Shown here: positions 48,829-52,134 of the stretch, piece by piece
Position numbering within the stretch: the stretch's first letter is position 1
How the letters are laid out: each line of letters opens with the position of its first letter
Sequence record: PZ496580.1
Length of the DNA stretch: 64,000 nt
Direction: 5' to 3' (one strand)
From: a phage
Translations under genes and position numbers: made by a program
Notes under the pieces: generated by a model
Databases searched by the model: none
Told to the model about the DNA's origin: nothing
Seen by the model: the letters and a program-made list of their open reading frames with translations, nothing else

Positions 48829-49830
48829 TTAGTAATGGCTAAAACCTTCGGTTACATCTTCAACCACATAGTAACGATGACAGCGCATTTTGGCATTCGC
48901 ATAATCTTTCGGGATACTTACAACGTGACGCGGATCAACTTTACATTTAATGATTCGGCCTCGTCCACCGCCATAGTGCGGAATATAGTGTTTCGCTGCA
49001 ACGTGGAGGCCATTAGAGCAAGTACGGTCATCATCGGGGTCCACGTCTTTACGCTTCATTTTAACCGTGCGCCCTGGGCTATTATCAAACGTATGCGTAA
49101 AGAAATCTTTATAATCAACATCAACACGTTTCCATGCATAGAAACAACCATCTTCCCCGATCTCAATGTCGTTGTGCTCTAAGAAGTCAAACAGACGATC
49201 TACCGCCTTACGGCTAGGGTTTTTCTTGCACTTCTCAAAGAAGTTCAGATAGTGCGTATATGGCTTATTCTCTTTAATCGACTCCACAACTCGACGAGTC
49301 AGATTATTATCAAGAACAATATTATGATAATACACAATACCATTTTCGATACGGAAAGCGCCGTGATAATATACTTCAACCGCTTTCTTAATGTCAATCA
49401 GCGTAATTGCTTTAATGAAATCATTCTGCTTAACTGCCTCCAGTGCTTCATTAAAGTTAACATGCGACGGATCAGCAGTATAAACAATGTCACCACATGT
49501 AATAGTAATAAATTTAGATGAGGCTATTGCTACGATTTTTGAGGAAGTAGTCACGGGCTTTTTTGCGCGTTCACCGCCTTTTCCTTTACTGGTTTTACGT
49601 CGTGCTTTACGTTTTTCTAGTGCCTTGCGACCTTCCGCTACTGCGTCTTTCTGAATCAGTAATACACGGGAGGCAGTACGACGAGATACACCAAATGCTG
49701 CCGCAAGTGCTTCGCGGGTAGTAAACTTACCCTCACCCCACTGTTTAGCCAGTTTGATTTGTTTTGCAGAGTCCAGACATTGAACGTTACGGTCAGAGAC
49801 GGTGATTTTTGCTTTAGTCATAGTATTCAT
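48829..49830 (-). CDS. rIIB: rIIB protein
   Basis: 333 aa; C-terminal two-thirds collinear with T4 rIIB as recalled (NPS.KAV.RLFDFL..NDIEI.EDG.FYAWK, TFDNSPG..VKM.R..V..DD...CS.GLHV, PRDVVSIP.DY.DAKMR). Confidence 0.85.
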   Translation of the reverse strand: MNTMTKAKITVSDRNVQCLDSAKQIKLAKQWGEGKFTTREALAAAFGVSRRTASRVLLIQKDAVAEGRKALEKRKARRKTSKGKGGERAKKPVTTSSKIVAIASSKFITITCGDIVYTADPSHVNFNEALEAVKQNDFIKAITLIDIKKAVEVYYHGAFRIENGIVYYHNIVLDNNLTRRVVESIKENKPYTHYLNFFEKCKKNPSRKAVDRLFDFLEHNDIEIGEDGCFYAWKRVDVDYKDFFTHTFDNSPGRTVKMKRKDVDPDDDRTCSNGLHVAAKHYIPHYGGGRGRIIKCKVDPRHVVSIPKDYANAKMRCHRYYVVEDVTEGFSHY

Positions 49831-49882
49831 TCCTCTATTAGTGGGCGACTCTCGCCGCCCGATTCACATCATTATACCAGAA

Positions 49883-50014
49883 TTATTTTGCTTCTACAAC
49901 CTTGCGGATTGTGCGGTCTGATACATTATAGATTCGTGCCAGTTCGCCTTTAGTCAAGCCGCGAGCGTATTGTTTACGGATGGTTTCTTTCTGGATAGCG
50001 GTCAGTTTAGTCAT
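49883..50014 (-). CDS. HTH mini-protein (43 aa) resembling rIIB N-terminus
   Basis: MTKLTAIQKETIRKQYARGLTKGELARIYNVSDRTIRKVVEAK; GAGGTGA SD; fills rIIA-rIIB spacer; below ORF-track cutoff. Confidence 0.45.
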   Translation of the reverse strand: MTKLTAIQKETIRKQYARGLTKGELARIYNVSDRTIRKVVEAK

Positions 50015-50025
50015 AATATCACCTC

Positions 50026-52134
50026 TTAAAATTTAACATTCTTAACCAGTTTCATAAAGTCTTGTGCGCGTTTGTCGTTATGCAGAATACGATACCAGTT
50101 ATCTACAATATCATACAGTAACGGGCTATTCTCTTTAAACTTCGCACAAACTGCTTTAATTCGTTCGTTTGCTGCCGTGAATTTTTCGTCACAGATCTTT
50201 TTAGTTTCTTCGTCCATAATCCAACGAGTACGAAGGAGTAACTTGGAAACCTCTTTATTATAATGACGACCGTACAGTCTGTCAACAAATTCTGGAATAC
50301 AGCGTTCTAATTCATCGTCATGATACAACATAGTGATCACACCCAGATATTCGCCATACCCCAGATGATTGGTCTTAACCTTCTTAGCCAGACCAGCCAG
50401 CTTACCGCGAACAAATTCTAGCGCACATTCCAATTGTTCGTCAACGAGATATTTTTGTGTCTCATTACGGGTAATAATATACTTTGTTACCCCGAAGTAG
50501 TCAAGCGCCGTGTGTAATGTATTTTCATTATAGATCGATTGACGGCTACGGCTTTCGAATGCATCACCCACGCGGAACATGTGCAAGCCTGATAACTCGC
50601 GAATCTCTGCCGCTTTCATGTGATGGCTGGTTTTATGCCAACTGTCACCAATCTTTTCCATAATATACACGTTAGGTAGCTTAGGAGTCGCTTCACGCTG
50701 TGTACGTTCGGTCTTCTCCGGTTTAACTGCTTTAGCACGCAGATCATCGGCCTCAGATACCTTAATCACGGTCATTTCAGATTCATCATAATACTGTTTG
50801 ATGTACTCGAAAGTCTCCATATGTTTTTCGTTGCGCTGACGGAACACCAGTACCTTTTTATTGATGCCGTATTCCTGGACCATGCCGTTAAGAGTCAGTG
50901 CACGCAGTTTCGGTTTATCGGTATCATCAATAAGACACGTAATATCTTCTTTATGCATCCATACAAAATGCGTAATGTTGTATTGACTGCTAACGAAAGC
51001 AGGGCGCAATTTACTGATTGTGTGTCGAGTACGATACAGAGTATACACTTGACCTTCTACGTCATTAGGCGAATCTTTACCAGCATTAACAAACTTATTA
51101 TAGATTTCTACCGGATCATCCCATTGTCCGATCTTACCCATCTTGCTAATAATATTGCGTTGAGTCGATGAATACTCGCTCATAAATTGCGCAAGTTTAC
51201 GCTCTGTTTTAATGTTGGCGATCTTCTCTTTGACCTTTTCCAACATCATTTCATTGATTTCTGCAATACGTTTTTCGATGTTCGCTTTAGTCTCAATTGA
51301 CAAGTGAACTTCTTCACGCGATGGCATCAGGTCCAGATCACCCAAATCAAAATTAATGTAAATGGTCTGGTGCTGACGGTTTACAGCTTCTAACCATGTT
51401 CCGCGAACGTATTCATACGGGATCGGATACTGGATCTTACCCATGATTGCATATACTACATAGGAATCGTTATCACGCCCATTACAAACATAATAATTAT
51501 CAAAGCTAGGGAAATAATTAATTTCGATTGCATTGATATTAGGTTTGTGTTCCCCAAAATGACGCAGTACAAATTGTGCTTCTCTATGCCATGTCTGAAT
51601 ATCTTTCTCTTTCACTGGAATAGTGATTTTCAGACCATTGTCTTCATAGGTCGGTTCGTCGAAAATCTGCACCATTTTCGGCATAGAGTTTTGCACAAAT
51701 GCCGTAAAGCCATAAGCGCGACCATTGTAATAGTTTACGATTGTAAAGGTGTCGGTATAGCTATAAGCAGACTTCGCACCCAAACCAAAAGATCCGATAT
51801 AATCATTAGTTTGGTCTTTTGTTGATTCAAAGTAAACCGTAAACAGTTGTTCTAATTCTTTCTTAGACGGAATACCAGTACCATAATCACGCACAGAAAA
51901 ATACGGTTCGATTGCAGTCGGTAAATGAATATCAAACGGACGATCTAAGGTTCCGGCTTCTTTGTGGGTGTCGGTAGCATTACATGAATACTCACGGACG
52001 CAAGCACGCTCACAATATTGATAAGTGTTCTTAGAAAGCACCATAAAAGCCTTGCTACTTGCTTTCAGAGAAAAATCAACCGCACCGCTCAAGTCACTGC
52101 CAAATACTTCTTCATTATCAATATGCATTTTCAT
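50026..52134 (-). CDS. rIIA: rIIA protein
   Basis: 702 aa (T4 rIIA ~725); GHKL-ATPase-like GSFGLGAKSAYSYTDTF region; directly upstream of rIIB. Confidence 0.8.
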   Translation of the reverse strand: MKMHIDNEEVFGSDLSGAVDFSLKASSKAFMVLSKNTYQYCERACVREYSCNATDTHKEAGTLDRPFDIHLPTAIEPYFSVRDYGTGIPSKKELEQLFTVYFESTKDQTNDYIGSFGLGAKSAYSYTDTFTIVNYYNGRAYGFTAFVQNSMPKMVQIFDEPTYEDNGLKITIPVKEKDIQTWHREAQFVLRHFGEHKPNINAIEINYFPSFDNYYVCNGRDNDSYVVYAIMGKIQYPIPYEYVRGTWLEAVNRQHQTIYINFDLGDLDLMPSREEVHLSIETKANIEKRIAEINEMMLEKVKEKIANIKTERKLAQFMSEYSSTQRNIISKMGKIGQWDDPVEIYNKFVNAGKDSPNDVEGQVYTLYRTRHTISKLRPAFVSSQYNITHFVWMHKEDITCLIDDTDKPKLRALTLNGMVQEYGINKKVLVFRQRNEKHMETFEYIKQYYDESEMTVIKVSEADDLRAKAVKPEKTERTQREATPKLPNVYIMEKIGDSWHKTSHHMKAAEIRELSGLHMFRVGDAFESRSRQSIYNENTLHTALDYFGVTKYIITRNETQKYLVDEQLECALEFVRGKLAGLAKKVKTNHLGYGEYLGVITMLYHDDELERCIPEFVDRLYGRHYNKEVSKLLLRTRWIMDEETKKICDEKFTAANERIKAVCAKFKENSPLLYDIVDNWYRILHNDKRAQDFMKLVKNVKF

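Follow-up and report, generated by a model that had tools for sequence, protein, structure and literature searches.

The genes for RIIA and RIIB are among the oldest of molecular genetics, and classical work established that rIIB function on K(lambda) survives removal or scrambling of the beginning of the gene. The T4 deletion r1589 is said to have lost this start segment, with rIIA fused to rIIB, and the N-terminal part of rIIB known as the B1 segment of Crick et al. (Crick-Brenner) was reportedly dispensable. This dispensability points to the RIIB N-terminal part as a separable unit. T4 RIIB carries at its N-terminus a three-helix helix-turn-helix (HTH) module (residues ~1-50; phrog_609/PF26926), and this domain is the ground on which Iyer et al. 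2021 (PMC7824862) treat RIIB as a specific transcription factor. RIIB has also come back into focus recently as an anti-RexAB factor, which defeats RexAB, and as a trigger of bacterial gasdermin/CARD defence systems (PMC10312443).

Here we describe a 43-codon gene between rIIA and rIIB, hereafter the mini gene, whose product is the same three-helix module as the T4 RIIB N-terminal HTH. The first-pass annotation had called it unannotated, which proved wrong for the public records, where the CDS is RB49p274 (NP_891845.1) in RB49 and is labelled 'hypothetical protein' in the RB49, GoldenSnicker, KFS-EC and GEC-3S records. It matched phrog_15481 ('unknown function') over its full length (residues 1-43 on profile positions 1-43 of 43, E 3e-34). 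RB49p274 and phrog_15481 belong to the same family as the mini gene with no sequence difference, the identical gene being present in RB49 and 58 other records, and the phrog_15481 annotation carries neither a function nor a stated link with rIIB. In the literature on the RIIB HTH, r1589 and the RB49 rII genes, we found no description of the mini ORF, of its link with rIIB or of the role of the RIIB N-domain. The novelty lies not in the gene, which had been catalogued before, but in recognising it as a free-standing RIIB N-terminal module, in showing that its position corresponds to that of the rIIB start in many other genera, and in the evidence of module multiplication in this clade.

The rIIA-rIIB junction

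The stretch of phage DNA analysed (the window) comprises 64,000 nucleotides of a Krischvirus, and the ~1.6 kb surrounding the mini gene showed 97-98% identity to 59 Escherichia/Shigella phages of the genus Krischvirus (RB49-like Straboviridae, T4 relatives). The features of the locus are as follows:

50026..52134, minus strand: rIIA (702 aa), upstream neighbour of the mini gene (phrog_612, E 2.5e-188)
50015..50025, minus strand: 11-nt spacer from rIIA to the mini gene, holding the Shine-Dalgarno sequence GAGGTGAT (50018-50025), as read in the sequence
49883..50014, minus strand: mini gene (43 aa, 5.0 kDa, pI 10.4), from the ORF listing; orthologue of RB49p274 and member of phrog_15481
49871..49899, minus strand: promoter-like site for rIIB, TTGTAG - 17 nt - TGgTATAAT, read from the sequence
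49843..49860, minus strand: GC-rich hairpin GGGCGGC-GAGA-GUCGCCC, obtained by folding, lying after the promoter-like site and before the ribosome-binding site of rIIB
48829..49821, minus strand: rIIB (330 aa from the second ATG; other in-frame start at 49830) (phrog_609, E 3.1e-106)
49654..49794, minus strand: resident, more diverged HTH in rIIB (~residues 10-56), from the RIIB-N profile (41.1 bits) and the AF2 model

The mini ORF consists of 43 codons followed by TAA, on the minus strand, and its translation reads MTKLTAIQKETIRKQYARGLTKGELARIYNVSDRTIRKVVEAK. It was found between rIIA and rIIB at the position given by the first-pass annotation, with the peptide quoted there contained exactly, and PHROG scans confirmed the identity of both flanking genes (phrog_612 and phrog_609, E-values as listed). 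The good Shine-Dalgarno that had been claimed for it is also present, GAGGTGAT standing 3 nt 5' of the ATG, which itself lies 11 nt past the rIIA stop. The present start of rIIB is in a different frame from the mini gene and ~190 nt downstream. We also considered whether the mini gene might be joined to rIIA or rIIB by read-through or frameshifting; this was rejected, as each of the three ORFs uses a different frame and stops separate them. RIIA itself gave weak GHKL ATPase matches in Pfam.

The rIIB gene begins with two in-frame ATGs three codons apart (MNTMTK...; 49819-49830, minus strand), preceded by its own AGAGGA ribosome-binding site, which follows the promoter-like site and the hairpin and lies 1 nt from the first ATG and 9 nt from the second. 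The 9-nt spacing makes the second ATG, which gives the 330-aa product annotated in relatives, the likely start of rIIB. Counted from that codon, the mini gene and rIIB both begin with ATGACTAAA (M-T-K) in Krischvirus proper.

To place the mini gene relative to the usual beginning of rIIB, we surveyed the junction in 25 other Straboviridae loci with upstream sequence and without a mini gene. Relative to the rIIA stop, rIIB began at -20 to +12 nt in about 19 of these 25 loci and at +27 to +59 nt in the rest. The T4-type junction reads TAA-TAAGGAAAATT-ATG, with an 11-nt gap, and that of locus L031 reads TAA-TAGAGGTGAATA-ATG. At the junction in the window, TAA-GAGGTGATATT-ATG, the slot is held by the mini gene and the gap is again 11 nt, equal to that of T4. 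As judged from these junction sequences, the mini gene occupies the slot where rIIB begins in T4 and many of its relatives.

A departure of another kind was observed in locus L010:1248-4397 (IMGVR_UViG_638276010_000001, 180,500 bp), where rIIA and rIIB form a single 1049-aa ORF that resembles the classical r1589 fusion. Its junction sequence matches that of relatives with separate rIIA and rIIB, which implies a frame change further up rIIA. The phrog_609 profile, with 1055 positions, suggests that fused rIIA-rIIB entries are present in databases.

The window and five other loci (L006, L087, L090, L091 and L092) share one arrangement, with rIIA followed by a mini gene of 43-45 aa, a hairpin and rIIB, giving six lineages; of the five further contigs, one was located via rIIB and four via relatives of the mini gene. 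The promoter-like site for rIIB has its -35 element within the last mini-gene codons, and the mini-gene stop falls within its spacer. It was not listed by a consensus promoter scan because its -35 element matches at only 3 of 6 positions. We kept it as promoter-like on account of its extended -10, of the annotation of the same site as promoter, -35 and -10 in phage GEC-3S, and of the full TTGACA-17/18-TA(C/T)AAT sites found at the same place in L087 and L090. Upstream, a perfect TTGACA-17-TATAAT is located at 50257-50285 (minus strand), inside the 3' part of rIIA and ~240 nt from the mini gene. An identical perfect site (TTGACA/17 nt/TATAAT) occupies the same position in L092 and is absent from L006, L087, L090 and L091. 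Such a promoter inside rIIA could make the mini-gene transcript independent of the rIIA promoter.

A GC-rich hairpin of 7-10 bp, of different sequence in each case, was found in the same spacer in 6 out of 6 lineages. None of the six has a U-tract after it, and the intergenic hairpin gave no Rfam match; it may act in RNA processing or stability, or as an attenuator. The -10 hexamer lies within the hairpin loop in L087 and L090. Similar rIIA-rIIB hairpins were seen in L017 and L093, both of which have no mini gene.

Likeness of the mini gene to the RIIB N-terminus

A total of 80 rIIB loci were collected from IMG/VR, and a profile (RIIB-N) was built from the N-terminal HTH of 31 distinct non-Krischvirus RIIBs, with no Krischvirus-clade sequence inside. 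The mini gene of the window scored 49.5 bits on this profile and three of its relatives 46.6-51.4 bits. The window's own rIIB HTH reached 41.1 bits and that of L091 29.8 bits. The claim of the first-pass annotation that rIIB retains its own, more diverged N-terminal copy was therefore borne out (41.1 vs 49.5 bits). This divergence is visible in the third helix of the resident HTH, which reads SRRTASRVL against the family-typical S.DTIRRV. When the whole 64-kb window was scanned in six frames with the RIIB-N profile, just the mini gene (49.3 bits) and rIIB (37.1) were detected, the next match scoring 6.5. The presence of only these two matches, combined with the purifying selection described below, indicated that the likeness is more than chance.

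Residues 4-41 of the mini gene aligned by BLASTP with residues 7-45 of T4 RIIB (NC_000866) at 41% identity (pairwise E 5e-4), so that the first-pass statement that the mini ORF 'closely follows' the T4 rIIB N-terminus was right in kind, the word 'closely' being an overstatement at this level of identity. The closest foreign module was that of a Klebsiella phage RIIB, with identities of up to 51-52.5%. Against its own rIIB copy the mini gene showed 32% identity (26-34% across the fused copies in the same genomes), and BLASTP of one against the other returned nothing significant (E 26), their relationship being visible through profiles only. By comparison, rIIB of the window is 44% identical to T4 RIIB, the alignment of its N-terminal HTH with T4 beginning at residue 3.

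A tblastn search of 50,697 phage genomes with the mini gene recovered the 59 orthologues first. The next-best matches listed were RIIB N-termini, from phages of Klebsiella, Serratia and Enterobacter (identity up to 52.5%, E 0.04), with actinophage HTH proteins ranking lower. In the reverse search, the N-terminus of a Klebsiella phage RIIB matched RIIB N-termini family-wide, and the top match in the three listed Krischvirus records was the mini gene, not rIIB. The best matches thus agreed in both directions, with marginal E-values (0.04-0.08).

The RIIB N-terminus and the mini gene have a common motif layout, L-x3-Q/E-K-x2-I-x3-Y-x2-G-x-T/S-x2-E-L-A-x3-V-S-x2-T-I-R-R/K-V. Unlike T4 RIIB, the mini gene stops after 43 codons, is not joined to the RIIB body and coexists with a second, fused copy; it also lacks the short 'N-I-K-C-L' lead-in that precedes helix 1 in the RIIB N-terminus. 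There is no covalent connection to the conserved RIIB C-terminal domains (TAA after codon 43; rIIB in another frame), so that the mini gene is related to a single RIIB domain and is not itself an RIIB. Profile scores, reciprocal tblastn, position and relatives all support the earlier proposal that it is a stand-alone copy of the RIIB N-terminal HTH.

The HTH class to which both belong is nevertheless much broader than RIIB. A mini-gene profile run against 1.84 billion representative proteins gave 304 matches at E<=0.001, in which some single non-rIIB modules scored 45-49 bits (up to 48.8) and the best RIIB N-terminus 37.7. The top matches outside its own family (P0126-P0135) were proteins of 220-720 aa made of 4-7 tandem HTH copies of the same kind; they share the HTH class and a head-to-tail multiplication also seen in one rIIB of this clade (see below). 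Unlike rIIB, the fifteen tandem-repeat proteins that were checked by eye showed no RIIB C-terminal domain motifs. A PHROG scan of the mini gene likewise ranked generic DNA-binding families (phrog_664, 1.5e-5) above phrog_609 (0.009). With the RIIB-N profile, the maximum among the 149 most mini-like proteins of the 1.84 billion was 44.7 bits, so that none reached the 49.5 bits of the mini gene. We also prepared a control 'generic' HTH profile from the best protein-library matches, on which the mini gene scored 76-80 bits, and discarded it as circular because its sequences had been selected for mini-gene likeness. By sequence, the mini gene is a very good RIIB-N-type module. Since non-rIIB modules outscore RIIB N-termini on the mini-gene profile, sequence alone is no proof of descent from rIIB, and the ancestry of the mini gene rests on position as well as sequence.

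The best Pfam family was CENP-B_N (PF04218), with 26.0 bits against a gathering cut-off of 21.2; this match shows only that the HTH is of the psq/CENP-B type, and its score is far below that on the RIIB-N profile. Sigma-70 region 4 (PF04545) stayed at 21.1 bits, below its gathering cut-off of 24.1. NCBIfam gave no informative match, and PADLOC assigned no defence-related family, just 16.8 bits to a generic HTH model.

The AF2 model of the mini protein (pLDDT 90.7) consists of helices 6-18, 22-28 and 33-41, and the same three helices are found in the model of rIIB. The protein is strongly basic (pI 10.4, net charge +7). Its Foldseek neighbours were the DNA-binding HTHs of IstA, gamma-delta resolvase/Hin, CENP-B and NarL (TM ~0.8), with E-values that are non-significant at 43 residues. 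The HTHs of Hin/gamma-delta resolvase, the IstA transposase, the CENP-B N-terminal domain and NarL/LuxR match the mini protein in size and three-helix topology (TM 0.7-0.83); they differ from it in being parts of larger proteins with catalytic or dimerisation parts, and their identity is 17-40% over ~40 residues. No recombinase or transposase was found near the mini gene. Searches of solved structures returned no RIIB structure, and their HTH matches for the mini gene were insignificant. The rIIB model (pLDDT 87.8) places the HTH helices at 18-29, 36-43 and 47-56; after these come a long helix, a linker that is basic and disordered, and the conserved C-terminal domains. This predicted layout would suit a loosely tethered HTH able to act equally when untethered.

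Conservation of the mini gene and multiplication of the module

A search of 5.8 billion proteins revealed four further 43-aa relatives with 69-86% identity, and the mini proteins of L006, L087, L090, L091 and L092 were 69-86% identical to that of the window. Among five lineages, dN/dS ranged from 0.02 to 0.33 in 9 out of 10 pairs, the tenth having a saturated dS. Synonymous differences were near saturation (pS 0.47-0.78), and the protein remained 69-98% identical over its whole length among the compared pairs. Such dN/dS values at near-saturated synonymous sites indicated selection on the protein and not on the DNA. The length, the start codon and the strong ribosome-binding site were kept in the six lineages, and the gene was intact in 59 out of 59 cultured Krischvirus records (>=95% identity). 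As to whether other phages carry the split form, the answer is positive for five diverged lineages besides that of the window and for all 59 cultured Krischvirus records. The substitution pattern identifies the mini gene as a real gene under strong purifying selection. The gp52 encoded by L006 showed 67.5% identity to its best cultured match (an Escherichia phage) and no more than ~55% to other T4-like genera, a divergence indicating that the rIIA-mini gene-rIIB arrangement predates the genus Krischvirus.

The same uncultured Krischvirus relative (L006:4685-6064; ENA ERZ27260015, contig k141_60519) has an rIIB of 459 aa with three in-frame HTH copies (residues 1-48, 55-104 and 141-189), in addition to a free mini gene upstream. 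Copies two and three are 66% identical. When the fused N-terminal modules were counted in 120 RIIB clusters, 113 had exactly one, 6 had none that could be recognised and one had three, L006 being the sole cluster with more than one. The three-HTH rIIB shows directly that the module multiplies head-to-tail in this clade.

A split rIIB was also observed in L040:1-1000 (IMGVR_UViG_2700989062_000001), where one extra T relative to the 95%-identical L030 divides the gene into a 92-aa ORF with the HTH and linker and a separate C-terminal ORF. This reflects either a frameshift that arose spontaneously in rIIB of the sequenced stock or an error in the sequence, and not a conserved split form.

Origin and role of the free-standing module

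We consider it moderately probable that the mini gene is an early gene for a free-standing paralogue of the RIIB N-terminal HTH, which arose by duplication of the module followed by its separation and would act in trans. In an ancestor shared by Krischvirus and its uncultured relatives, the HTH-coding 5' end of rIIB would have been duplicated. Of the two copies, the one upstream would then have become a separate cistron, still coupled to rIIA and near the family consensus (SDRTIRKVV), and the downstream copy would have stayed fused to the RIIB body, free to drift towards its present SRRTASRVL. The mini protein would be translated from the rIIA transcript and would supply in trans the function that the N-domain of RIIB has in cis, its fold and charge suggesting that it most likely binds DNA, or else the RIIB N-domain's own partner. 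Profiles, reciprocal tblastn, position and relatives support the idea, already put forward in the first-pass annotation, that the module had been duplicated or split off. The 26-34% identity between copies within a genome implies that the duplication is old or that the copies are of different sources; instead of an old event, one copy may have been acquired by recombination from another T4-like phage. The intermediate that the scheme predicts, an in-frame two-HTH rIIB abutting rIIA with no mini gene, was not found among the loci examined.

An origin outside rIIB has to be weighed against this reading, namely that a small HTH gene of separate ancestry, coming for example from another phage or a mobile element, entered the gap between rIIA and rIIB, its likeness to RIIB reflecting membership of the same broad class and not descent. 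The very large size of the class (304 library matches at E<=0.001), in which single modules reach 45-49 bits against the RIIB maximum of 37.7, would fit such an event, as would the matches of generic PHROG and Pfam HTH families to the mini gene and its identity of just 32% to the adjacent rIIB copy. We nevertheless regard the insertion as rather unlikely: on the RIIB-N profile the mini gene (49.5) exceeds all 149 competitors (maximum 44.7) as well as the resident copy, its best non-self matches listed among phage genomes are RIIB N-termini in both search directions, and landing in the rIIB slot behind an rIIB-type ribosome-binding site would need a coincidence. It can scarcely be credited, on the other hand, that the mini gene is what remains of the 5' part of an older rIIB after gene replacement or partial duplication, now decaying and conserved only through its overlap with the rIIB promoter. 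A stump of this kind is the expected first product of a partial tandem duplication, and the last mini-gene codons do overlap the -35 element, with the stop in the promoter spacer. That overlap is however confined to the last few of 43 codons, whereas the protein is 69-98% identical at near-saturated synonymous sites with dN/dS down to 0.02, its length, start codon and ribosome-binding site are kept in six lineages, and the gene is intact in 59/59 cultured genomes.

With regard to function, a version of the preferred duplication-and-separation reading would have the mini protein regulate transcription from the neighbouring rIIB promoter or from other early promoters, linking rIIB output to rIIA expression. 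The mini gene ends inside the rIIB promoter-like site, a juxtaposition kept in all lineages, its fold resembles DNA-binding HTHs, and RIIB is already treated as a transcription factor (Iyer et al. 2021, PMC7824862). Against this, no repeated or palindromic operator was identified, 43 residues leave no dimerisation surface, and the promoter sequences vary widely across lineages while the recognition helix SDRTIRKVV is invariant, which is a poor fit with a local operator; we therefore judge this version to be unlikely. Action at the protein level is distinctly improbable in our view. The mini protein would in that case be a partner or competitor of whatever binds the RIIB N-domain (RIIA, RIIB or a host factor), or a decoy for RIIB-sensing defences. 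The roles of RIIB against RexAB and as a gasdermin/CARD trigger (PMC10312443) would put selective pressure on how RIIB is presented, and the mini gene is tightly coupled to rIIA. This case is, however, built on inference throughout, the HTH fold and a net charge of +7 suggest nucleic acid as the target, and there was no match to a defence-related family (PADLOC, 16.8 bits to a generic HTH model).

The Krischvirus arrangement can be seen as a natural separation of the N-terminal unit that is dispensable in T4 rIIB. The segment reportedly lost in r1589 is kept twice in Krischvirus, one copy being free and the other fused. That the module has been kept as a separate, strongly conserved 43-residue protein indicates that it has value on its own. 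Krischvirus and its relatives might even represent a natural domain-fission experiment on RIIB, in which the HTH has an independent job in trans that is tied to rIIA and not to rIIB, the fused copy having a different specificity, although we hold this broader interpretation to be possible but doubtful. For a gene that is 'hypothetical' in at least 59 phage genomes, we offer the name 'RIIB N-terminal-domain-like HTH protein'. Being small and synthesisable, the mini protein could serve as a reagent for probing the binding of the RIIB N-module. If the domain-fission interpretation is true, this 5-kDa protein would be a simple handle on what the RIIB HTH binds, and it could reveal how RIIB is seen by, or hidden from, the RexAB and gasdermin/CARD defences.
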